Source: Deltaproteobacteria bacterium YD0425bin51 (GTDB lineage: Bacteria; Desulfobacterota; Desulfobacteria; Desulfobacterales; YD0425bin51). Taken from it: a stretch of 64,000 bases of DNA. The notes beneath the pieces were generated by a model. It did no database searches and was not told where the DNA came from. It saw only the letters and a program-made list of their open reading frames with translations. Shown here piece after piece: positions 1 through 12,188 of the stretch (within the stretch, counting starts at the first letter, position 1; each line of letters begins with the position of its first letter). The stretch covers positions 20,167 to 84,166 of the forward strand of contig PDZS01000013.1 in NCBI GenBank assembly GCA_002753225.1. The letters are read 5' to 3'. The position numbers and the translations under genes were made by a program.

Positions 1-879
1 ACATTAGAACGTTTTAAGGAAATTAAAAGTTTAGTAGATCTTAATTCATGGTTAGAAGAGTCTAATAATCATTGGAGAAGCGATTTAGGCTTTTTTATTA
101 GATTTTCTAGAGCAATGGGGCTTGATAAAATAGGTCATGGACATAACTCATTTATTAATTATGGCGCTCTTGACAATTTCATTCCTGCTGGATTTTTACA
201 AAATATGGAAATCCAAGAATTTTCTGAAAGCAAAATAAATGAGCATGTCGCATATTCATGGTATATGGACTATGAAGGAGGTAAGCACCCCTTTGATGGT
301 GAAACACGACCATACGCTTCGGGAAATGAAAGCCAAAAGTATTCATGGGCTAAAGCTCCCAGATATGATGGATTTCCTGCTGAAACTGGTCCTCTTGGCG
401 AAATGGTTATAAAAAAGCATCCTTTAATTACTGATATCATAAATTCTAAAGGGATAAGCGTTTTTGTAAGAGAATTGGCACGCTTAATAAGGACAGTAGA
501 GCTTATACCTTTAATGGATTCATTATTATTAGAAATTTTAGATAATGGAAGCTTTTATAATCCTTTAAACGAAATAATAGAAGGGAAAGGATGCGGACTT
601 ACTCATGCATCAAGAGGCGCTTTAGGTCATTGGGTAAAGATTAAAGAAGGTAAAATAGAAAGCTATCAGATAATTACTCCAACAGCATGGAATGCTTCTC
701 CTCGTGATTCTAATGGAATAAGAGGTCCAATTGAAGAGGCGCTTATTGGCACTCCTGTTCAAGATATTAATAATCCTATTGCGCTAGGCCATGTTGTAAG
801 GTCTTTTGATGTTTGTCTAGTATGTACAGTTCATTCAATTTATCGCGGAAAAATTGTGAGCAAAAGCATTATAGGGTGA
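1..879 (+). CDS. [NiFe]-hydrogenase large subunit, C-terminal ~290 aa (5' end outside window)
   Basis: Frame 1 is open from nt 1, with no stop before the Met at 115. The translation has PRYDG..ETGPLGE and GLTHASRGALGHWVKIKEGKIESYQIITPTAWNASPRD. It ends in the C-terminal metal-binding motif DVCLVCTVH, followed by a 14-aa tail (SIYRGKIVSKSIIG) of the kind removed by a maturation endopeptidase. Cys is used here, not a TGA codon, so this is NiFe rather than NiFeSe. Confidence 0.85.
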   Translation, partial: TLERFKEIKSLVDLNSWLEESNNHWRSDLGFFIRFSRAMGLDKIGHGHNSFINYGALDNFIPAGFLQNMEIQEFSESKINEHVAYSWYMDYEGGKHPFDGETRPYASGNESQKYSWAKAPRYDGFPAETGPLGEMVIKKHPLITDIINSKGISVFVRELARLIRTVELIPLMDSLLLEILDNGSFYNPLNEIIEGKGCGLTHASRGALGHWVKIKEGKIESYQIITPTAWNASPRDSNGIRGPIEEALIGTPVQDINNPIALGHVVRSFDVCLVCTVHSIYRGKIVSKSIIG

Positions 880-883
880 AATT

Positions 884-1750
884 ATGAAATCTATAATTAT
901 TTCTATTTTTTTAGTTATTATTATGATTTCTAGTAGTTATGCCATGCATGCAACAATAACAGAAGCAGAAGGTTATGCATGCATGGGAGAAGATAAATCA
1001 AGGAAGCAGACAGAACAAGCTGCAATGATCGATGCAAAGAGAAAAGCTGGAGAGTTTGCGCTGGCATACATAGAAAGTGAAACAAAAGTAAAGGATTTTA
1101 TACTTGAAAAAGATATTATTTCAGCATACACAAATTCGACTGTAAGAGTAATTCAAGAGATATCAAGCGCATGGTATAAAGACTCTTCAGTAGGAGAGTG
1201 CTATAAAGTAAAGATAAAAGCAGAGGTAACACCTAATGAAAAAGCAATAGAAAAGGTTACAAATTCTAGTGCAAATGATCCATCTGCTCCCCTTAATGTA
1301 AAAATATATACAGATAAAAAAGAATACAAAGATGGCGATAAAATTAAAATCTATATAAGAAGCAATAAGCCATTTTATATGAGACTAATTTATAAAGATG
1401 CTGCAAATAATATGATTCAATTGCTTCCAAATCCATATAGAACTGATAATTATTTCAATGGAGGGATTACATATGAGTTCCCTTCAGGCAATGATAAGTT
1501 TGAGCTTGAGGTTTCTAAACCTTTTGGAGAAGAGAATCTAATTGTTTATGCAAGCACTTCGCAGCTTGGAGATATAAGCCTTGAAACTTATGGAGATGTA
1601 TATCAGATAAAAACAAAAAAAGAACAAGTTGAAACAAAGACCAGAGGTGTTAAATTAACAGCGAAAAGTGTTAGTAAAAGCGGGAGTATTAGTTCAGAAA
1701 AAGGTGCAGAATTTTTTGAAGATAAAGCAATTATAAAGACCGGAAAGTAG
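884..1750 (+). CDS. Secreted protein with DUF4384-like C-terminal domain
   Basis: Hydrophobic N-terminal signal (MKSIIISIFLVIIMISSSYA). The C-terminal half (YTDKKEYKDGDKIKIYIRSNKPFYMRLIYKDAANNMIQLLPN) looks like the DUF4384 family, recalled from memory. The gene starts 5 nt after the hydrogenase stop. Its TAG stop lies inside the REP palindrome. Confidence 0.6.
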   Translation: MKSIIISIFLVIIMISSSYAMHATITEAEGYACMGEDKSRKQTEQAAMIDAKRKAGEFALAYIESETKVKDFILEKDIISAYTNSTVRVIQEISSAWYKDSSVGECYKVKIKAEVTPNEKAIEKVTNSSANDPSAPLNVKIYTDKKEYKDGDKIKIYIRSNKPFYMRLIYKDAANNMIQLLPNPYRTDNYFNGGITYEFPSGNDKFELEVSKPFGEENLIVYASTSQLGDISLETYGDVYQIKTKKEQVETKTRGVKLTAKSVSKSGSISSEKGAEFFEDKAIIKTGK

Positions 1751-1774
1751 AGACGCACGGCCGTGCGTCTCTAC
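1747..1774. repeat. REP-type 28-nt perfect palindrome, copy 1
   Basis: GTAGAGACGCACGGCCGTGCGTCTCTAC. The sequence equals its own reverse complement (14-bp stem potential). It overlaps the stop codon of the upstream ORF. Confidence 0.95.
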
Positions 1775-1791
1775 AATAATTGAGTGGTGTA

Positions 1792-2358
1792 ATGGAAAAA
1801 TTTCAAAATAAATATCGCATACCTTCGGCACGGGCAAAATGGTGCAATTATTCAGGAAAAGGTGCTTATTTCATTACCATTTGTACGGCAGGTACCGAAC
1901 ATTTATTTGGCGAAATAATAAACAATGAAATGGTTTTATCCAAAATGGGTATTATTATTCAGCAGGAATGGAACAAATCTTTTGAAATACGCGCCGAATT
2001 ATTTTGTGATATATTTGTCATCATGCCAAACCATATTCACGCCATTTTACGAATTTGCGTAGAGACGCACGGCTGTACGTCTCTACGCGGCTGTGTGTCT
2101 CTACCGATACGAGCACAAAACCATGGGATTGCATTTCGAGAACCAAAATCTATATCGTCGTTTATTGGAGGATTTAAATCAGCGGCAACAAAACGTATCA
2201 ACGAATTCCGTAATACCCCTAAAATACAGGTTTGGCAAACACGTTTCCACGACCACATTATCCGCGATGATGATGAATACCAATACATTAAAAAATATAT
2301 ATTAGAAAACCCAATGAATTGGGAACAGGATAAATTTTTTAAAAAGGACAACCAATGA
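1792..2358 (+). CDS. REP-associated tyrosine transposase (RAYT; IS200/IS605 TnpA-like Y1 HUH enzyme)
   Basis: N-terminal KYRIPSARAKWCNYSGKGAYFITICT, HUH motif in MPNHIHAIL, and C-terminal WQTRFHDHIIRDDDEYQYIKKYILENPMNW are typical of Y1_Tnp/RAYT proteins. I prefer the ATG at 1792 over the TTG at 1780 given in the track. Confidence 0.85.
   Translation: MEKFQNKYRIPSARAKWCNYSGKGAYFITICTAGTEHLFGEIINNEMVLSKMGIIIQQEWNKSFEIRAELFCDIFVIMPNHIHAILRICVETHGCTSLRGCVSLPIRAQNHGIAFREPKSISSFIGGFKSAATKRINEFRNTPKIQVWQTRFHDHIIRDDDEYQYIKKYILENPMNWEQDKFFKKDNQ
2059..2104. repeat. Degenerate REP copy plus extra right arm, inside the RAYT coding sequence
   Basis: GTAGAGACGCACGGCTGTACGTCTCTAC (2059-2086, two changes from the consensus) is followed by GCGGCTGTGTGTCTCTAC (2087-2104), a second right-arm-like half. 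In the RAYT frame it encodes VETHGCTSLRGCVSLP, directly after the HUH motif. Confidence 0.85.
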
Positions 2359-2441
2359 GCGGCATTGGTAAAAATAAAGGTAGAAAGTCGAAAAGCAAAA
2401 AACAGTTATTGAGGAAATAAGACCAAGATGCTATTTTTAAC

Positions 2442-2469
2442 GTAGAGACGCACGGCTGTGCGTCTCTAC
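2442..2469. repeat. REP palindrome, copy 3 (loop variant GGCTGTG)
   Basis: GTAGAGACGCACGGCTGTGCGTCTCTAC. It is preceded by TTTTAAC, the same 5' flank as the copy at 3401. Confidence 0.95.
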
Positions 2470-2622
2470 ACTCAAATGATTAACATGATTTTTCAATAGG
2501 CTATCCATGCCAATCAATCAGATATATGCGACATGCCCAAAAAAGTTAATTAGAAGTGAAGATGCAAAGCTAACGATAAATTATGAACTACTTGATAAAA
2601 ATTAAGGATAAAGGATATATAA

Positions 2623-2829
2623 ATGACTATAGTTGAAATAAAAAAAATGAGCACAGTTGAGCTTTTTCAAACAATGGAGGCTATATGGGATTCTCTTTTA
2701 CATAATGAAGTTGAAATTGAATCTCCAGAATGGCATCAAGATATTCTTGCAGAAAGAAAAAAAAAAATAGAAAAGGGTAAAGGAGAATTTATTTCAATTC
2801 AAACGCTAAAGGCGGCTCATGAAAATTAA
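2623..2829 (+). CDS. Putative addiction-module antitoxin component
   Basis: 68-aa protein (MSTVELFQTMEAIWDSL...SPEWHQDILAERKKKIEKGKGEFISIQTLK) resembling the 'putative addiction module component' antitoxins. It overlaps the next ORF by 11 nt. Confidence 0.65.
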   Translation: MTIVEIKKMSTVELFQTMEAIWDSLLHNEVEIESPEWHQDILAERKKKIEKGKGEFISIQTLKAAHEN

Positions 2830-3127
2830 AAATGTCTTTATTCTAAAAGACGCTGTAAACGACCTTAAGGATGGAGAATTTTTCTATGAACAAAATGAAG
2901 TTGGCGTTGGTAAATATTTTTGGGATAGTTTAATAGCAGATATAGAGTCTTTAGTTATCTATGCTGGGATTCATAATAAAAATTATAGTTTTTATCGAAT
3001 GTTTGCCAAACGATTTCCCTATGCTATTTACTATGAGATTAAAGATAAAATAGCTTATGTTATCGCTGTATTACCAATGCGGAGAGCTCCTATATGGATT
3101 AGAAGAAAATTGAAAGAAAGAAGCTAA
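2819..3127 (+). CDS. ParE/RelE-family type II toxin
   Basis: 102 aa. The pattern (..RFPYAIYYEIKDKIAYVIAVLPMRRAP) is typical of plasmid-stabilisation ParE/RelE toxins. It is translationally coupled to the upstream small ORF. Confidence 0.65.
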   Translation: MKIKNVFILKDAVNDLKDGEFFYEQNEVGVGKYFWDSLIADIESLVIYAGIHNKNYSFYRMFAKRFPYAIYYEIKDKIAYVIAVLPMRRAPIWIRRKLKERS

Positions 3128-3201
3128 CCATTTTTTTATGCGTGAAATATTAGTTTAAAAGCTGTGGCAGCATTTATAAACAATTTACTAATAACTTCGT
3201 C

Positions 3202-3229
3202 GTAGAGACGCACGGCCGTGCGTCTCTAC
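3202..3229. repeat. REP palindrome, copy 4
   Basis: Exact consensus 28-mer, followed by AGAGTGTT. Confidence 0.95.
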
Positions 3230-3400
3230 AGAGTGTTAGGCACAATGAAGTTATGGAGTGTATAGCTAACCTAAATCATTCGTAATCTCTGATAGATTGT
3301 AAATTTACCAATGTTTACGGTCATGATAGCTAAATTATAACTTCTTCTGAGATTACAACTCATATAGGCTTGCTATAATGCAATGAGTGGCAGTTTTAAC

Positions 3401-3428
3401 GTAGAGACGCACGGCCGTGCGTCTCTAC
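3401..3428. repeat. REP palindrome, copy 5
   Basis: Exact consensus 28-mer, preceded by TTTTAAC and followed by AGAGTGTT. This is the same 3' flank as copy 4, which lies 199 nt upstream. Confidence 0.95.
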
Positions 3429-3461
3429 AGAGTGTTTCAACATTGGATAACAGGATAATTT

Positions 3462-5294
3462 ATGCGTAAATTTTCTATTATTTTTTTATCTTTATTAGTT
3501 TATATTTTAGGGTTTTCACATTATGCCATATCAGCAGAAAAGGTTGCTTTAGTTATTGGCAACAGCAATTACAAAAATAAGGATTTATCTTTAAAAAATC
3601 CAGGAAATGATGCTGACGACATGACTAAAGTTTTAAAGTCCATTGGATTTGATGTTATTAAATTAAAAGATGGAACTTTGCAGCAAATGGAGGAAAGCGT
3701 TGATTCTTTTGCTTCAAAACTGAATGGAGCAAAGATAGGAATTTTTTATTATTCAGGTCATGGCGTGCAGGTTAAGGGGAGTAATTATCTTATCCCAATT
3801 GAAGCTAATTTGAAAAGTGAAAGCGATTCAAAATATAAATCGCTAGATGTTGGACTTGTTTTAGGAAGAATGGAAGACGCAGGTATTGGTGGGAATAAAG
3901 TAAACATAGTTATTTTAGATGCATGCAGGAATAATCCTTTTAAGGGTTTTAGGTCAATGTCAAGAGGACTAGCTTCTATGGATGCTCCAAAAGGAACAAT
4001 TATAGCATTTGCTACATCGCCGGCAAAAACTGCTGAAGACGGCAACGGGCGAAACGGAACTTATACCAAGCATCTTCTTCGCAATTTAGGCAATCCTAAA
4101 TTTCATGTAAATGAGGTTTTCAGACAAACAGGTTTAAGAGTGATGGAAGATACAAAAGAAGAGCAGACTCCATGGACATCTTCTACCCCTATTAAAGATA
4201 TATATCTGGCAAGCGGAAGCGTTGTGGTTGAAACGCCAAGTCAAGTTTCTACAACAATGGAGGCAATGCCTGATACAGGTTCTCTTATTGTAAAGACAGT
4301 TCCATTAAATGCTGATATTTATATAAATGGTACCAAAGTTGGAACAGATAATGTTCTTATAGAGAATCTGCCTGTTGGAAATATGCGGGTTATGGCTGTA
4401 AAAGACGGTTTTAAACAACTTGAAAAAGGTATTGTCATAAATAAAGGAAAAGAGACTAAGCTTACTCTGATTTTAGACAAAATTGAACCTGTAGCTACAA
4501 AAACGATTGATCGTGTGACCACAACAGCTGCTACAACAACCGTAGAACAGCAGACAATAACAGTTGCCTCATCCTCAAAGAGCATTAAAAACAGCATAGG
4601 TATGGAATTTGTGCAAATACCCGCAGGTTCATTTATGATGGGCAGTCCAGAAAGTGAACCTGGTCGAGATAGCGATGAAACTTTACATAAGGTGACATTG
4701 ACTAAAGGTTTTTATATGCAGATTACAGAAGTAACACAAGGACAATGGAAGGCAATAATGGGTAATAATCCATCTCACTTTAAGAATTGTGGAAATGAAT
4801 GTCCTGTAGAGAAAGTTTCTTGGCATGATGTTCAGAATTTTATCGAGAAATTAAATCAAAAAGAAGGAATTAGCAAATATAGGCTGCCTACAGAGGCAGA
4901 ATGGGAATACGCTTCAAGAGCAGGGAGCGAGAGTGCTTTCGCTAACGGCAGTATTACACAAACTGCTTGTGAACATGATCCAAATTTGGATAAAATGGGA
5001 TGGTATTGTGGAAACGCTGATAGTAAGACTCATTCTGTAGCCCAAAAAGAGTCAAATAATTGGGGATTATATGATATGCACGGCAATGTATGGGAGTGGT
5101 GTCAGGATTGGAAAGATTCTTATCCTTCTGGATATATTACTGATCCTACTGGCCCATCAAGAGGCGAGGACCGTGTGTACCGTGGCGGAAGCCGGGGCGA
5201 CTTTGCGAGGGGCTGCCGCTCTGCGTACCGGGAGAGTGGCACACCTGATGGCGGGTACGAATACGTTGGCTTTCGCCTCCTCAGGACCTTTTGA
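3462..5294 (+). CDS. Secreted caspase-like (peptidase C14) - PEGA - FGE/sulfatase-modifying-factor-domain protein
   Basis: Signal peptide, then a caspase fold with the His/Cys dyad (YYSGHGVQ ... ILDACRNNPF). A PEGA-like beta domain follows (GSLIVKTVPLNADIYINGTKVG...MRVMAVKDGF), then a Thr-rich linker. The C-terminus is an FGE-sulfatase domain (MEFVQIPAGSFMMGS..., WEWCQDW, RVYRGGS, GFRLLR). Confidence 0.85.
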   Translation: MRKFSIIFLSLLVYILGFSHYAISAEKVALVIGNSNYKNKDLSLKNPGNDADDMTKVLKSIGFDVIKLKDGTLQQMEESVDSFASKLNGAKIGIFYYSGHGVQVKGSNYLIPIEANLKSESDSKYKSLDVGLVLGRMEDAGIGGNKVNIVILDACRNNPFKGFRSMSRGLASMDAPKGTIIAFATSPAKTAEDGNGRNGTYTKHLLRNLGNPKFHVNEVFRQTGLRVMEDTKEEQTPWTSSTPIKDIYLASGSVVVETPSQVSTTMEAMPDTGSLIVKTVPLNADIYINGTKVGTDNVLIENLPVGNMRVMAVKDGFKQLEKGIVINKGKETKLTLILDKIEPVATKTIDRVTTTAATTTVEQQTITVASSSKSIKNSIGMEFVQIPAGSFMMGSPESEPGRDSDETLHKVTLTKGFYMQITEVTQGQWKAIMGNNPSHFKNCGNECPVEKVSWHDVQNFIEKLNQKEGISKYRLPTEAEWEYASRAGSESAFANGSITQTACEHDPNLDKMGWYCGNADSKTHSVAQKESNNWGLYDMHGNVWEWCQDWKDSYPSGYITDPTGPSRGEDRVYRGGSRGDFARGCRSAYRESGTPDGGYEYVGFRLLRTF

Positions 5295-5342
5295 GGTGGC
5301 TTGATGCTGGATGTTTACCTTTTATTGTTTTACATTTTTATA

Positions 5343-5449
5343 TTATCTGAACACGATTTATAGGATTAAAGGATGTACAGGATTCAACGCATTGACTTTA
5401 CATTTAAAATCGTGGCAATCCTTTAATCTTGAAAATCGTGTTCAGATAA
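5343..5449. repeat. 107-nt imperfect inverted-repeat element (MITE-like or structured leader)
   Basis: Left arm TTATCTGAACACGATTT (5343-5359) pairs with AAATCGTGTTCAGATAA (5433-5449). The inner arms GGATTAAAGGA and TCCTTTAATC also pair. The element lies just upstream of the OmpA-like start codon. Confidence 0.6.
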
Positions 5450-5460
5450 CAGTGGGAAGG

Positions 5461-5958
5461 ATGCAAATGTTAAATATAAATGCTATTATTATCAGCATAG
5501 CTTTTATAAGTTTAATAATTAATTCAGCGATAGCTGAAGAGATAGTTTTCCCAAAAACAGAGCAAGAAATTGTGCGAGCTTTAAGTTTAAAGAGAGGTCT
5601 TGGAAAAAGCGTTAAAATTAGACCTAAAGCCTGTGCTAAGGTTCAATTTGATTATAATTCCTATGAGATAAAGAAAGAATCTTATCCGCTTTTAGATGAA
5701 TTTGGCAAGGCTCTCAAAGGAGGGTTAGATGGAATTAATATTACAATTATTGGTCATACGGATGATAAAGGAGATGGGAAATATAATATGGATTTATCTC
5801 TTAAAAGAGCGAGTGCCGTTAAAAGATATTTAGTCGAAAAACAAGGAATATCATCTGAAAGATTAAAAATAAAAGGGAAGGGGGAGGAAGAACCTATTGC
5901 CCCAAATGATAATAAAGAAGGCTCTGCAAAAAATCGCCGAGTAGAGTTCGTAAGGTAG
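5461..5958 (+). CDS. OmpA-family (peptidoglycan-associating) protein
   Basis: The start is moved to ATG 5461, which gives a signal-like N-terminus (MQMLNINAIIISIAFISLIINSAIA). The C-terminal OmpA_C motifs are ITIIGHTDDKGDGKYNMDLSLKRASAVKRYL and NRRVEFV. The TAG stop lies in the REP palindrome. Confidence 0.8.
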   Translation: MQMLNINAIIISIAFISLIINSAIAEEIVFPKTEQEIVRALSLKRGLGKSVKIRPKACAKVQFDYNSYEIKKESYPLLDEFGKALKGGLDGINITIIGHTDDKGDGKYNMDLSLKRASAVKRYLVEKQGISSERLKIKGKGEEEPIAPNDNKEGSAKNRRVEFVR

Positions 5959-5982
5959 AGACGCACGGCCGTGCGTCTCTAC
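5955..5982. repeat. REP palindrome, copy 6
   Basis: Exact consensus 28-mer. Its nt 2-4 (TAG) form the stop codon of the OmpA-like gene. Confidence 0.95.
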
Positions 5983-6024
5983 AAACATTGATATCAATTA
6001 TTAATTGATATTTAAGGTGAAAAT

Positions 6025-6642
6025 ATGGAAGAAAGCCGTTTAGATAGAATTGAAAAAAATTTAGAATTATTTACGATAGAATTTAATAGGATGCACAAGC
6101 AAATTGCTAAAGAGATTTTAGATTTAAAAGAATCTCAAAAGAAAACAGATGAACAATTACAAAAGACAGATGAGCAATTACAAAAGACCATTAAAAAATT
6201 AGACAATATAGGAAAACAACTAGGAGATTTAGGTCTAGTACAAGGGGAAGTTGCCGAAGATTTATTTTATAGGAATGTGAAAAGTCTATTTAAAGAGGAG
6301 AAAATAACTTTTAAGAGTGTTGAAAGAAATCTAAAGAAGAAAGGTGTAGCTGAATACGATATCGTCGCAATAGATGGAGATAAGGTGTTAGTTATAGAGG
6401 TTAAAAATAAGCTAAATAAGAATATGGTTGATAATTTTATAAATAAAAAAATACCCATATTTAAAGATATATTTCCAAAGTATAGCAATTACAGGATATT
6501 AGGAGGAATGGGAGCATTAGTAATAAGAGATGAGATAGGAAGATATGCAGAAAAAGCAGGACTTTATGTTTTAACTCAGACAAGCGATGGGGGAGCTGCA
6601 TTATTAAATAAGAAGAATTTTAAAGCCAAAATATTTGGCTAA
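6025..6642 (+). CDS. Coiled-coil + PD-(D/E)XK-like nuclease-fold protein (DUF3782-like)
   Basis: The N-terminal coiled coil contains a tandem KTDEQLQ KTDEQLQ. The C-terminal part has a D...E.K pattern (EYDIVAIDGDKVLVIEVKNKL) reminiscent of restriction-endonuclease-fold proteins. This is a weak, motif-level call. Confidence 0.4.
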   Translation: MEESRLDRIEKNLELFTIEFNRMHKQIAKEILDLKESQKKTDEQLQKTDEQLQKTIKKLDNIGKQLGDLGLVQGEVAEDLFYRNVKSLFKEEKITFKSVERNLKKKGVAEYDIVAIDGDKVLVIEVKNKLNKNMVDNFINKKIPIFKDIFPKYSNYRILGGMGALVIRDEIGRYAEKAGLYVLTQTSDGGAALLNKKNFKAKIFG

Positions 6643-6646
6643 AGAG

Positions 6647-6674
6647 GTAGAGACGCAAAGCCGTGCGTCTCTAC
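6647..6674. repeat. REP palindrome, copy 7 (loop variant)
   Basis: GTAGAGACGCAAAGCCGTGCGTCTCTAC. The stems are intact and two central bases are changed. Confidence 0.9.
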
Positions 6675-6701
6675 AGGTCAGACAAGTATACTTTAAAAGA
6701 T

Positions 6702-7145
6702 ATGAAAAGAATTATCTGCATTGGCAACCGCTACATTCAAAGTGATTCTGCAGGTCCTTGTGTATATGATTATTTAAAAGAGCAAAACCTTTCACAAGAC
6801 ATAGAAGTTATTGATGGAGGATTACATGGGATAGATCTTCTTAGATTTATTGAGGGAGCTGAAAGAGTGGTTTTTGTCGATAGTATTTATGGATTTGGTA
6901 ACTCCAATAAAGTTGTTGTTATGGAAGCTAAAGATATTGTATCTGAATCTGTTAATAGATATGATCATTCGGCAGGACTTCTATATCTTCTTCAAATTTT
7001 ACCTCACATTTGTGAAGGAGATATTCCTTATATTTATTTGGTTGGAATCGAAGGTCTGCCAAATAATGATATAGTAAAAAAAGCTGCTTGTATAGCTGTT
7101 AAAATAGCCGATGGCGTTTGTGGAGATTTTTATCATGAAAAATAA
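6702..7145 (+). CDS. Hydrogenase maturation endopeptidase (HybD/HynC/HoxW family)
   Basis: [25 protein letters not shown]...[12 protein letters not shown]...VVFVDS...DHSAG fits the GN..xxDxG / vDa / H metal-ligand pattern of HycI-family proteases. The track start (GTG 6663) lies inside the REP copy, so I prefer ATG 6702. Confidence 0.8.
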
Positions 7146-9675
7146 AATAACTGATAAATTTATTGATGAGTTAGAGGAAGAAAACCTTTTGCTTAAAAAA
7201 GAAATAGAGGTTGCACGTAGAGCATCTGAGATTACTGCTAAGCTTGTAGTTGAGCAGCTTGAAAAGATGGAGGAGGTTCACAGGAGGCTTGAAGAAAAAG
7301 CAGCCATAGAACAAGAATTACGTGAAAGACTTGGTGAAGAACTTAAGCAATCTGAAAAAAGAGAACAGGATTTAGCTAAAGCTAGAATAGCGGCAGATGC
7401 TGCAAATCGTGCAAAAAGCACGTTTCTAGCCAATATGAGCCATGAATTGCGTACTCCCATGAACGCTATTATTGGTTACAGTGAAATGTTAACAGAGGAG
7501 GCTGAAGATTTAGGTCATGATGAGTTCGTCCCTGATTTAAAGAAGATAAATTCAGCAGGTAAACATTTGCTTGCGCTTATAAATGATATTTTAGATTTTT
7601 CCAAAATTGAAGCAGGCAAAATGGAGCTATACCTTGAAACATTTGATATTAATAAAATGATTCATGATGTTACAGTCACAATTCATCCTCTTATTGAAAA
7701 GAACACAAATACTCTTAAAGTTATTTGCCAAGATAACCTTGGTTCCATGAGAGCAGATTTAACAAAAGTTAGACAGGCTCTATTCAATTTGCTGAGCAAT
7801 GCTTCTAAATTTACAAAGCAAGGTGTTATTACACTTTCAGTTCAAATAAAATCAAATGGAGATGACAATAAATGGGTTGTATTCAGTGTTAAAGACACTG
7901 GTATTGGTATGACATTAGATCAGCAAAAAAAATTATTTCAGGCTTTTTCACAGGCAGATGCCTCAACTACTCGTCAATTTGGAGGAACAGGTCTAGGACT
8001 TGCCATAAGTAGACATGTTTGCCAGATGATGGGGGGTGATATTACAGTAGAGAGCGAAATTTCTAAAGGTTCAACCTTTTCCATAAAACTTCCTGCTGAA
8101 GTAATTACAGAAAAAATTGAGGAAATGGAAAAACTCCCAGAAAAGCTTATAGATATAACTGCTTCCCATGATTTAAAGACCATTCTAGTTATTGATGATG
8201 ATCCAAAGGCTAGAGATATGATAACTCGTATTTTAAGTAAGGAAAAACTTAAGGTTATTACTGCTTCAAGCGGTGATGAAGGGATAAAAATAGCTGAGGA
8301 ATCTCATCCTGACGTAATCATTTTAGATGTGCTCATGCCAGGGATTGACGGTTGGGCAGTTCTTGCTGCTTTAAAAGCAAATGTAAAAGTTTCTGATATT
8401 CCAGTTGTAATGCTTTCTGTTCTAGATGAAGAAAATATTGGTTTTGCACTAGGAGCTGCTGATTATTTGACAAAGCCTATAGACAGAGATCGCCTTTTTG
8501 CAGTTTTAAAGAAATTTTTCCCAAGCGGTATGCAAGGTTCTATTCTTATTGTAGAGGATGATAATGTAACTAGGAATATGCTTAAACGTATGCTTGAAAA
8601 AGAAGGATTATCTGTAAGTGAGGCACAAAATGGGAGAATAGGACTAGAAGTTGTAAAAAAAGTGCATCCTGCTTTAATTATGCTCGATTTAATGATGCCT
8701 GAAATGGATGGATTTCAGTTTGTAGAAGAGATTCGCAAAAATGAAGAATTCAGATCAATTCCTATTATAGTTGTTACTGCAAAAGATTTAACCCAGGAAG
8801 ATCGTCAAAGACTAGATGGATATGTTAAATTAATTGTTCAAAAAGGATCATACAATCGTCAGGATCTTTTAAGAGAACTTCGAAGTATTGTTTCAAACCA
8901 TACTCATGATAAAGCACCAGTACATTCTTTAAATAAAATTCTTGTTATTGATGATGATACTAAAATACATGATTTACTTAATAGAACTTTAACAAAAGAA
9001 GGATTTGAAGTATTAAATGCTTTAAATGGAGAAGAGGGTATAAGACTTGCTAAAGAAATAAGACCACTAGCTATAACATGTGATGTTTTAATGCCTGGTA
9101 TTGATGGATGGACAGTTCTTTCCCAATTAAAATCTGATCCTGATACTGCTGATATTCCGGTAATAATGTTATCTGTATTAGATGATAAAAAATATGGTTT
9201 TAGCCTTGGAGCTACAGAATATCTAAATAAGCCGGTTGATAGGGACCGCCTTATTTCAATACTAAAAAAATGTCGAAATGAGCTTGCAAATGGACCAGTT
9301 TTAATAGTTGAAGATGATTCTTCTACAAGGGAAATGTTAAGGAAATTAATATTAAAAGAAGGATGGGATGTAACTGAGGCAGAGAATGGAATAAAAGCAT
9401 TAGAACAGGTTTTATTAAAAATGCCGTCTATTATACTTCTTGATTTAATGATGCCAGAAATGGATGGGTTTACTTTTATAGAAGAATTTCGTAAAATAAA
9501 AGATTTTAATTCTGTTCCTATTGTTGTAATAACTGCTAAAGATTTAACTGAGGAAGATAGAATTCAACTTGATGGTTCTGTTAAGAGAATTATTCAAAAA
9601 GGAGAATATAGCAGCGAACATTTAGTTCAAGAAATTCGTAAATTAATTTTAGAGTGGAAGGAAAAAAATGGCTAA
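7135..9675 (+). CDS. Hybrid histidine kinase: coiled coil - HisKA - HATPase_c - four receiver domains
   Basis: H-box [19 protein letters not shown]; N/G boxes [24 protein letters not shown]; four REC domains (..[10 protein letters not shown].., ..[10 protein letters not shown].. twice each). The first ~90 aa are coiled coil only, and I see no sensor domain or TM segment. The start could be ATG 7135 or ATG 7111; both overlap the protease gene. Confidence 0.85.
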
Positions 9676-10040: not shown

Positions 10041-10601
10041 ATGCTTGCAGAAGAGATTAAAGAAATTTCAGAAGAAGATTATTTAGAATTTGAAAGAAAA
10101 GCTGAAAGTAGGCACGAATATCATAATGGAGAGATATTTTCAATGGCAGGAGCTTCTAGAAATCATAATTTGATACTTACTAATATTGCGGGAGAACTAA
10201 GGAATCAATTAAGAAGGCGCTGCAGAATATATGTAAATGATATGAAGGTTAGAATAGAAGAGACTAAGAGTTATGTTTATCCAGATATTATAATAACATG
10301 CGGAAAGGAAAATTTTTTTGATAAAACTACTGATGTGCTAGTTAGTGCTGAAAAGATGGTAATAATAGAGATTCTTTCTGATTCAACAGAGGCTTATGAC
10401 AGAGGTGCTAAATTTTATTATTACCGCAATCTTCCTTTTTTAAAAGCATATTTATTAGTTTCTCAAAGAGATAGAAGAATTGAACAATTTGATAAGATTG
10501 AAAATTCTAAATGGCGTTTTTCAGAATCTGATGATAATGAAATAACTATCGAAGCTCTTGAATGCAAGCTGAATTTAGATGATGTTTATGAAGATTTTTA
10601 A
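10041..10601 (+). CDS. Uma2-family (DUF820) putative endonuclease
   Basis: EYHNGEIFSMAGASRNHNLI...YPDIIITCG...IIEILSDST is the typical Uma2 pattern. Confidence 0.7.
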   Translation: MLAEEIKEISEEDYLEFERKAESRHEYHNGEIFSMAGASRNHNLILTNIAGELRNQLRRRCRIYVNDMKVRIEETKSYVYPDIIITCGKENFFDKTTDVLVSAEKMVIIEILSDSTEAYDRGAKFYYYRNLPFLKAYLLVSQRDRRIEQFDKIENSKWRFSESDDNEITIEALECKLNLDDVYEDF

Positions 10602-10622
10602 CAGGAAAGGTTAAAAAAAACA

Positions 10623-12188
10623 ATGGCAGAAGAAGAGATATCCCCTAAAAATAGGGCATTTATGCCTTATGTAAGACATGAACTCCGCACTCCTATTAAC
10701 GCAATAATCGGCTACAGCGAAATGCTTTTAGAGGATACTGCAGAGCGAGGCGAAGAAGCAGAAGGCTTGCGTGCTGATCTTGCAAATATCTGTAGTGCTG
10801 GAAAAGACCTTCTTACGCTTGTAAATGACACGACAAAAAAAGACTTTAATTTTGAAGTTTTTGGTTCAAATTTTAGGCATGCAATAAGAACTATGATAAA
10901 TACAATCATAGGCTATACTGAAATGCTTTTAGAAGATGTTGACAATACACAAAATGGATCATTTTTTGAAGATTTAATGAAAATTCAAAAAGCTGGACAA
11001 CAGATGTTCAAGCTAATAGAAGAATTTATTAAAATTGAAAAAATTGAAACAGGTAAAGAGTCTTTTGAGATGATGGAAGATGTTGTATCATCCATACGTC
11101 CGCTTGAAAATGAAGCTGAATATAAAGAGACTCAAAAAGGATATCTTTTAGTTGTTGATGATAATGAGATGAATCGGGATATTCTTTCCCGTAATTTACA
11201 GCGTCAGGGTTATACTGTAGAAATAGCAGAAAACGGACGGATGGCTTTGGAAATGATTTCAAATAAGTCCTTTGATCTAGTATTATTAGATTTGATGATG
11301 CCAGAGATTAATGGATATCAAGTGCTGCAGCAAATGAAAGAAACTAATAAATGGAAGAATATTCCAGTTATAATGCTTTCAGCTTTGGATGAGATAGATG
11401 GAGTTGTAAGGTGTTTAGAAATTGGAGCAGAAGACTATTTATCTAAACCTTTTAATTCAGCTTTGCTACATGTTCGAATTGAATCTTCTCTTGAAAAAAA
11501 GAGGCTAAGAGATAAGGAAGAAATCTATAGAAAGCAGATAGAAGAATCTAACCGTCATTTAGAAAGCCGTGTTCAGGATCAGGTTAAACAGCTAAGGGAA
11601 AGTTATGAAAGATTACAAAAAGCTTTAAACGGAACAGTTAATGCGTTATCTTCAGCAGTAGAAATAAGAGATCCATACACAGCAGGTCATCAACAGCGTG
11701 TAAGCCAACTTGCTTGCGCTATTGCTAAAGAAATGGGACTCCCTGAAAGTCAAATAGAAGGAATAAGGGTTGCAGGAATCCTTCATGATATAGGCAAAAT
11801 TTCAGTTCCTGCAGAAATTTTATGTAAGCCGGGTAAGATATCTGAAGCAGAATTTGGGGTAATTAAAAGTCATGCTGAAACAGGTTATGATATATTGAAA
11901 AACATAGAGTTTCCTTGGCCAATTGCGCAAATTGTTCGTCAGCATCAAGAAAGAGTTGATGGATTTGGATATCCATTAAAATTATCAGGAGAAAATATTT
12001 TACTTGAAGCAAAAATTATAGGGGTAGCTGATGTTGTTGAAGCTATGGCTACACATAGACCATACAGGGCGGCACTGGGTATTGACTTAGCATTAGATGA
12101 GATAACAAAGAAAAAAGGAATTGCTTTTGATGCTCAAGTTGTTGATGCGTGTTTAAGAATTTTTGCAAACAAAACCTTTAAGTTTTAA
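10623..12188 (+). CDS. Response regulator with two N-terminal DHp (HisKA-like) modules, REC and HD-GYP phosphodiesterase domain
   Basis: Two H-box-like segments ([22 protein letters not shown] and FRHAIRTMINTIIGYTEMLLED) with no ATPase domain after them. REC domain (LLVVDDNEMNRDIL...DLMMPEINGY). HD-GYP domain (HQQRVSQLA..., ILHDIGKISVP, HQERVDGFGYP). Confidence 0.8.
   Translation: MAEEEISPKNRAFMPYVRHELRTPINAIIGYSEMLLEDTAERGEEAEGLRADLANICSAGKDLLTLVNDTTKKDFNFEVFGSNFRHAIRTMINTIIGYTEMLLEDVDNTQNGSFFEDLMKIQKAGQQMFKLIEEFIKIEKIETGKESFEMMEDVVSSIRPLENEAEYKETQKGYLLVVDDNEMNRDILSRNLQRQGYTVEIAENGRMALEMISNKSFDLVLLDLMMPEINGYQVLQQMKETNKWKNIPVIMLSALDEIDGVVRCLEIGAEDYLSKPFNSALLHVRIESSLEKKRLRDKEEIYRKQIEESNRHLESRVQDQVKQLRESYERLQKALNGTVNALSSAVEIRDPYTAGHQQRVSQLACAIAKEMGLPESQIEGIRVAGILHDIGKISVPAEILCKPGKISEAEFGVIKSHAETGYDILKNIEFPWPIAQIVRQHQERVDGFGYPLKLSGENILLEAKIIGVADVVEAMATHRPYRAALGIDLALDEITKKKGIAFDAQVVDACLRIFANKTFKF

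Follow-up and report, generated by a model that had tools for sequence, protein, structure and literature searches.

The 64-kb stretch of DNA from a Desulfobacterales MAG that was analysed here (the window) carries a RAYT gene surrounded by REP palindromes, one of which lies inside the RAYT gene itself (Table 1). The REP-bearing block is situated between the C-terminus of a NiFe hydrogenase large subunit (115–879) and a HycI-type maturation protease (6663–7145). It comprises genes for a DUF4384 protein, the RAYT, an antitoxin/ParE-like toxin pair (2623–3127), a caspase–PEGA–FGE fusion (3462–5294) and an OmpA family protein, together with a NERD-like ORF. Across 884–6674 a REP follows nearly each gene, and the region looks like an island inserted into the hydrogenase operon. 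At two of the sites the TAG of the GTAG head doubles as the stop codon of a gene, namely the DUF4384 ORF (884–1750) and the OmpA family ORF (5311–5958), and a third copy begins just past ORF 6025–6642; hence the REPs abut or truncate gene 3' ends.

A search of the window for the 28-mer GTAGAGACGCACGGCCGTGCGTCTCTAC, allowing up to three mismatches and using shuffled sequence as control, returned seven sites where the shuffles led us to expect none. Six are extragenic and one is internal to the RAYT gene. All seven fall within 1747–6674, at most 5 kb from the RAYT gene, and the remaining 57 kb of the 64-kb window hold no further copies. Two of the extragenic copies flank the RAYT gene and the other four are within 4.3 kb of it; a RAYT gene with REPs on both sides is the classical REPtron arrangement. 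The copies at 3202 and 3401 have a common 3' flank, AGAGTGTT, and those at 2442 and 3401 a common 5' flank, TTTTAAC; in some cases the repeated unit may exceed the palindrome, or duplication may have carried flanking sequence along with a copy. The base following all six extragenic copies is A, and no conserved target sequence is evident beside the seven window copies beyond the pyrimidine and purine flank bases described below.

Table 1. Features of the RAYT gene, its internal REP and the surrounding REP copies (window coordinates).
Feature	Position	Strand	Description and basis
RAYT / TnpAREP gene	1792..2358	+	188 aa, Y1 HUH transposase of subclass 2.4 type; ORF, profiles, AlphaFold2 model
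HUH motif codons H81-I82-H83	2032..2040	+	sequence; H81 and H83 invariant in alignment
Internal REP	2058..2087	.	30-nt palindrome C-GTAG...CTAC-G; core 2059–2086, GGCT loop, one C.A mismatch
Tandem duplicate of 2070–2087 (loop + right arm)	2088..2105	+	in frame, 18 nt; Tandem Repeats Finder
Catalytic tyrosine codon Y169 (YILENP)	2296..2298	+	aligns with Y115 of 4ER8; invariant in alignment
Upstream flanking REP	1747..1774	.	perfect; 17 nt before RAYT start; TAG = stop of ORF 884–1750
Downstream flanking REP	2442..2469	.	84 nt past RAYT stop; GGCT loop variant as in internal copy
Extragenic REP, perfect	3202..3229	.	28-mer search
Extragenic REP, perfect	3401..3428	.	28-mer search
REP, perfect	5955..5982	.	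TAG = stop of ORF 5311–5958
REP, two changes near loop	6647..6674	.	5 nt beyond ORF 6025–6642

In the RAYT gene product, which matches the database protein P0001, 'transposase [Desulfobacterales bacterium]', at 100% identity, the HUH motif is followed first by WQTRFHDH and then by the tyrosine in YILENP. H81, H83 and Y169 are invariant in an alignment of 41 homologues, from which the invariance calls and a family profile were derived. Against the PDB this profile has a sole match, the E. coli TnpAREP structure 4ER8 (E=1.2e-6), and the profile alignment pairs Y169 with Y115 of that enzyme. The curated family models are narrowly missed: NCBIfam REP_Tyr_transpos, which aligns in two stretches, reaches 64.6 of the 80 bits required, and Pfam Y1_Tnp 21.7 of 23. 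The scores fall short because the inserted loop splits the domain; several homologues do have a precomputed PF01797 match. The AlphaFold2 model (mean pLDDT 81) finds ISDra2 TnpA, IS608 TnpA and 4ER8 as its top Foldseek matches, each with E about 1e-6. As in other RAYTs, then, an HUH motif and a single catalytic tyrosine are housed in a Y1 fold, and the gene is flanked by GT[AG]G-headed palindromes that are also present elsewhere. Its features are those of subclass 2.4: the motifs NHIH, VWQTRF and YILENP (with one deviation, E for N) in a protein of 188 aa, a variable insertion between beta3 (HUH) and alphaC, and a 'double foot' REP with an in-frame REP inside the gene (2059–2086).

Within the gene, positions 2059–2086 read GTAGAGACGCACGGCTGTACGTCTCTAC, with GCGGCTGTGTGTCTCTAC directly after. 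A preliminary description of this DNA had reported a REP hairpin at 2059–2104, in frame in ORF 1792–2358, GC-rich and set between the HUH motif and the catalytic C-terminal region, and these points are borne out. The sequence is as reported and in frame, the GC content of 2059–2104 is 0.59 as against 0.35 in the remainder of the gene, the segment starts six residues past H83 of the motif PNHIHAI, and Y169 is present downstream. The encoded peptide is V90-ETHGCTSLRGCVSL-P105, residues 90–105. The 28-nt core is a copy of the consensus palindrome with two changes, a loop of GGCT where the consensus has GGCC and a G-to-A change in the stem that creates a C.A mismatch, and it is the most diverged among the seven window copies. 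Including the flanking C and G, the palindrome measures 30 nt, and the complete insert 48 nt, or 16 codons. The half copy that had been described as an extra right arm is indeed extra sequence; more exactly, it is an in-frame 18-nt tandem duplicate of the loop plus the right arm, in which 15 of the 18 bases are identical (Tandem Repeats Finder: period 18, 1.9 copies, 88% matches). Folded as RNA, the segment 2040–2125 is predicted to pair its left arm and loop over 18 bp, four of them G.U, with the distal, duplicated arm (−32.3 kcal/mol, z = −3.8); for the DNA, the proximal 28-nt hairpin is the favoured form (−17.6 kcal/mol).

In the AlphaFold2 model, residues 90–105 fall within a coil (89–120) between the strand that carries the HUH motif (81–88) and the following helix (121–140). 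The pLDDT is below 50 for residues 93–107 and 109–115, and the neighbouring elements are well predicted. Homologues have anything from about 10 to over 100 residues in this loop, and the alignment shows the segment to be an insertion relative to hairpin-free relatives (P0037 versus P0004; P0083 versus P0112). Structure prediction and homologue alignment had both been proposed as checks in the preliminary description, and the two results, a low-confidence coil and an insertion, favour the first of the readings it offered, that of a REP inserted in a tolerated loop.

The in-gene palindrome is a family-wide trait of this RAYT subclass and is not peculiar to the window gene. Among the best 120 homologues (54–68% identity; from Brocadia, Saprospiraceae, Calditrichia and others), about 103 have V[EG]THGRASL or a close variant in the same loop, and many have two to six tandem or partial copies. 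In 80 loci from many phyla that came from a genome scan, an intact GT[AG]G...C[TC]AC palindrome is present inside the gene at 48, located 250–430 nt from its start and with a perfect outer stem in 43 of these 48; about 15 more of the 80 loci have degenerate internal palindromes and the remainder have none. Where the gene is hairpin-free, GC-rich REP-type palindromes flank it in 11 of 13 examples examined. The subclass is scattered over phyla, with a tree at odds with taxonomy. Independent insertions are also found at other sites of the RAYT protein, in the N-terminal beta-hairpin (P0080, P0095, P0105) and in the loop before WQ (P0039, P0041, P0084, P0085, L144, L187). At two of the loci with secondary sites, L144 and L031, no clean insertion boundary is definable because the sequences are too diverged.

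The object that is conserved in the loop is the nucleic acid, because the peptide varies while the DNA stays palindromic. Loop peptides include VETHGRASL, VETDGRPSL, VETLHATSL and CRDARPCVST, and the changes among them are compensatory at the DNA level (H/A to D/P, T/S to P/A, or entirely different stems). Judging from codons, a perfect palindrome is obtained whenever VETDGRPSL, VEPHGRAAL or VGPHGRADL is translated back into DNA, and other clades have other stems (VETLHATSL, VETGHAPSL, VETPRRGVST, VGANGRSPL). Even the reading frame differs: 42 internal palindromes are read in frame a (VETHG..), six in frame c (CRDARPCVST) and none in frame b, which contains TAG. A stretch compatible with a perfect 28-nt palindrome was found in 128 of 270 relatives, as against 9 of 270 shuffled sequences. 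All 28 nt are common to thirteen loci whose proteins are 40–97% identical (mean 54%), with only 33% identity at fourfold-degenerate third positions outside the hairpin and a gene GC content that runs from 0.35 to 0.60. The constraint thus acts at the DNA level and not at the peptide level. Homologues with the same peptide encoded by non-palindromic DNA, which the preliminary description had named as the observation that would speak against it, did not turn up; the opposite was seen, namely differing peptides that are all encoded by palindromic DNA.

Outside the window, the exact 28-mer is present on at least 120 metagenome contigs. Of 132 exact metagenome copies sampled, the RAYT loop accounts for 14 and other parts of RAYT genes for 2 to 3; about 20 are in frame within long ORFs unrelated to RAYTs, and most of the others are on contigs without a RAYT. 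The dispersed copies are sparse, usually one per metagenome contig of 1–14 kb. The unrelated ORFs (L095, L114, L130, L136, L142, L177, L093 and others) extend for 200–700 codons on either side of the 28-mer, which they read as VETHGRASL or CRDARPCVST, and the L136 ORF has two copies. In-gene, in-frame survival is therefore a general property of this REP. Across 151 copies from all retrieved loci, a pyrimidine (T or C) precedes GTAG in 78% and a purine (A or G) follows CTAC in 84%, suggesting that the natural, and presumably mobile, unit is a 30-nt palindrome of exactly 10 codons, a length that would by itself preserve the reading frame.

Several further observations concern the form of the repeats. 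In seven RAYT ORFs (L004, L011, L022, L047, L051, L055, L059) the perfect palindrome extends well past the 28-nt REP, giving stems of 20–26 bp and up to 52 nt in total with the frame still open; examples are L011 (GTTGATCCGCAC-REP-GTGCGGATCAAC) and the 46-nt palindrome of L004. Such extended stems could have arisen from quasipalindrome template switching, or from selection for longer stems. Downstream of the hairpin-free RAYT gene of L031, positions 10559–10863 contain six AGACGCACGGCCG[T/G]GCGTCT cores at 57-nt spacing, an array that resembles a BIME-like REP array. At L078, L075, L013 and L023, two or three REP subtypes are present at one locus; they have a common foot, GTAGAGACG...CGTCTCTAC, and differ in their upper stems, with internal and flanking copies of different subtypes. 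The shared foot and differing upper stems suggest that the RAYT may read the foot and that the upper stem would be free to vary.

The preliminary description had regarded the arrangement as not explicitly explained before, and here it has to be corrected. Quentin, Siguier, Chandler and Fichant (2018, BMC Genomics 19:475; PMC6006769) reported that REPs are inserted in frame in subclass 2.4 tnpAREP genes and considered these insertions to be tolerated in a variable, peripheral region; in their model this region lies away from the DNA-binding and catalytic sites, with the REP between HuH and Y. Their subclass 2.4, which corresponds to RAYT Group 4 of Bertels et al. 2017, has the motifs NH[IFV]H, WQ and YIxNNP, a mean length of 194 aa and no C-terminal extension, and is hosted by Cyanobacteria, Bacteroidetes and various other phyla. 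Its 'double foot' REPs begin with 5' GT[AG]G and end with 3' C[TC]AC, and Table S1 of the same paper gives the exact 28-mer found here for a subclass 2.4 REPtron. REP insertions in frame within other genes were described by Di Nocera et al. 2013 (PMC3733652), who also speculated that REP hairpins may lower RAYT expression. In the literature we met with no proposal or test of a function for the internal REP copy, and a main-text literature search with the strings VETHGRASL, RDARPCVST and GTAGAGACGCACGG gave no paper that mentions them. The window gene is thus a fresh instance, from a Desulfobacterales MAG, of a published subclass 2.4 trait.

We interpret the internal REP as, most likely, a tolerated selfish insertion. 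The segment is a copy of the RAYT's cognate REP, a double-foot palindrome (GTAG-stem-loop-stem-CTAC) of about 30 nt or 10 codons, that was placed in frame, presumably by the RAYT, in the hypervariable loop that links the HUH strand to the next helix. Ten or so added residues would be tolerated and translated there because the loop is a disordered peripheral surface region. Once present, the hairpin would promote replication slippage, which may account for the in-frame 18-nt duplication in the window; afterwards it would decay or be deleted, and fresh copies would arrive. The RAYT gene appears to be a preferred target, as REPs accumulate beside and inside the gene of the mobilising enzyme, and only in-frame insertions in loops would survive selection. 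Taken together, an in-frame REP insertion that is tolerated in a permissive loop of its own RAYT gene and is reshaped there by slippage, decay and loss is the probable explanation, although we hold it with measured confidence.

Close relatives differ in the state of the insert, which documents its turnover. A 7-aa duplication of an arm distinguishes P0027 from P0031 (98% core identity), and P0017 and P0025 (97% core identity) differ in decay and copy number; P0039 is missing the right arm, P0013 keeps a remnant only, and P0037 and P0083 are without the insert that is present in relatives 77–86% identical to them. Passive turnover is also in keeping with the independent insertions at two other sites of the gene, with the in-frame copies in unrelated ORFs, with the frame-preserving 30-nt unit and with the mismatched, most diverged state of the window's internal copy. 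Against this reading, the hairpin is far better conserved than a neutral, simply inherited insert would be. Perfect copies make up 43 of 48 internal and 31 of 48 nearby external palindromes, a comparison limited by the method of copy detection. Of the 55 genes that bear a hairpin and could be assessed on both flanks, 28 lack any GC-rich hairpin up to 500 nt away from the gene, and with a stricter sequence match 35 of 60 are without a copy of the same core anywhere in the retrieved locus. Hairpin type and reading frame track RAYT clades. The 28-nt identity, the tracking of clades and the perfection of internal copies fit selection and continual replacement, from a REP pool that the specificity of the RAYT would keep uniform, equally.

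Three further patterns were considered and set aside. A complementary distribution of internal and flanking hairpins, in which every gene would require one or the other, is not supported by the counts (27 genes with both, 28 with internal only, 9 with flanking only and 5 with neither; p = 0.38). The frame bias towards frame a is not decisive as a sign of a single ancient insertion, because unrelated host genes also favour this frame, roughly 2:1 by eye, and because loop indels can flip the frame (L003). Finally, 'solo' internal hairpins, with no external copy within 10 kb, are uninformative as a sign of selection in place, because dispersed copies are so sparse.

Selection of the internal REP as a self-contained cis element, whether as a binding site for dosage control or as a heritable master copy, would explain the 28-nt identity despite saturated synonymous sites, the clade-tracking type and the invariant foot GTAGAGAC; we nevertheless consider it doubtful. 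In the first of these forms the hairpin would be kept since the RAYT binds the extruded or single-stranded DNA, or the mRNA, of its own gene, or since an mRNA stem throttles transcription, translation or stability, so that enzyme dosage would be self-limiting and the control would travel with the gene. Such autoregulation draws on the conservation of nucleotides instead of peptide, with the foot GTAGAGAC...GTCTCTAC kept across clades, on the strong enrichment of GC-rich hairpins in the loop (present in most genes, as against 0.089 per kb in distant flanks), on the stable predicted RNA fold of the window segment and on the speculation by Di Nocera et al. (PMC3733652) cited above. Yet among relatives with 77–97% core identity the hairpin is in some cases missing and in others halved or degraded, and this turnover argues against an obligatory role; several intact genes lack the hairpin entirely, and the window copy itself has a stem mismatch. 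The same element moreover occupies in-frame positions in unrelated genes, in which it could have no such role, and internal and flanking copies show no significant complementary distribution. Neither a known RNA family nor a terminator was found: Rfam gives no relevant match at E <= 1 in window 1–8000, and the internal hairpin has no terminator-like site and no terminator-like T tract after it on the coding strand. On this evidence a cis autoregulatory site is unlikely.

The second form corresponds to the last option of the preliminary description, an origin of the REP family from the internal copy. Here the internal REP would be a seed or 'germline' copy, co-inherited and co-transferred with the enzyme, that re-founds the REP population after horizontal transfer or loss, and lineage-level selection would enrich RAYT genes that carry a REP. 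The scatter of the subclass over phyla, in a tree that does not follow taxonomy, is consistent with such a role, as are the tracking of RAYT clades by internal type, the frequent exact match between internal and nearby external types (L007, L014, L016, L019, L021, L023, L056, L077), the many loci with an internal copy and no external one within about 10 kb, and the confinement of the window REPs to the neighbourhood of the RAYT gene. However, cutting out a 28–30-nt internal copy would leave that chromosome with a destroyed or altered gene, and absence within 10 kb says little given that there is usually one dispersed copy per 1–14 kb contig. Flanking REPs are present even in hairpin-free members, so an internal copy is dispensable; at L078, L075 and L013 the internal type is not that of the flanking copies; and the internal copy of the window, being the most diverged of the seven, is not a master sequence. 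We therefore regard a founding role as quite unlikely. Protein-level constraint or coincidence, in which VETHG..SL is a functional motif and its palindromic coding incidental, can be dismissed as extremely improbable, for although the peptide recurs in many homologues, peptides are wholly different between clades and frames while compensatory DNA changes keep the palindrome, palindrome-compatible relatives far outnumber shuffles, and the loop is predicted to be disordered; peptide-level conservation was rejected on these grounds.

The locus offers a clean and well-documented case of a published curiosity, a mobile repeat inside the gene of the enzyme that moves it. Its loop has proved to be permissive within a Y1 HUH enzyme, and the nesting of repeat in gene opens a direct route to studying how REPs come to be inserted, in which a likely unit of 30 nt, its pyrimidine and purine flanks and the survival of the frame can all be traced. 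The internal copies could be used to test whether RAYTs prefer to act in cis and whether self-regulation occurs. If the internal copy should prove to be selected, REP–RAYT pairs would be physically fused replicator units and not loosely linked partners.

Among known systems, the window RAYT is closest to the published members of subclass 2.4, from which nothing essential sets it apart. It has their NHIH, WQ and YIxxNP motifs, their length of about 190 aa without a C-terminal extension and their hypervariable stretch inserted after the HUH strand and ahead of the next helix, and it has the same GTAG/CTAC feet, the identical 28-mer, and REPs that flank the gene plus one in frame between HuH and Y. 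The differences are small: the Desulfobacterales MAG lies outside the set of Quentin et al., the internal copy is slightly decayed and bears the 18-nt tandem duplication, and YILENP stands in place of YIxNNP. The E. coli TnpAREP (4ER8) with its REP/BIME or REPIN system likewise combines a Y1 HUH fold and catalytic tyrosine with GTAG-headed palindromes that flank a single-copy domesticated transposase. Classical REPs, however, have one foot, are asymmetric, are often paired as REPINs or BIMEs and are absent inside the RAYT gene, whereas the window system has a fully symmetric palindrome and an enzyme whose long variable loop hosts a REP. The Rickettsia RPEs and the GTAG/CGTC REPs of Di Nocera et al. 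(2013) are also short in-frame palindromes, translated as extra loop residues and often found as dimers or partial copies; in contrast to both, the host gene here is that of the element's own mobilising enzyme, and occupancy of one particular loop is the rule in this subclass and not sporadic. The TnpA proteins of the IS200/IS605 family (IS608, ISDra2) have the same fold and chemistry and recognise single-stranded DNA hairpins, but there the hairpins form the transposon ends, beyond the gene, and the whole element is mobilised together, whereas the hairpin described here is a dispersed repeat that is also found inside the ORF.
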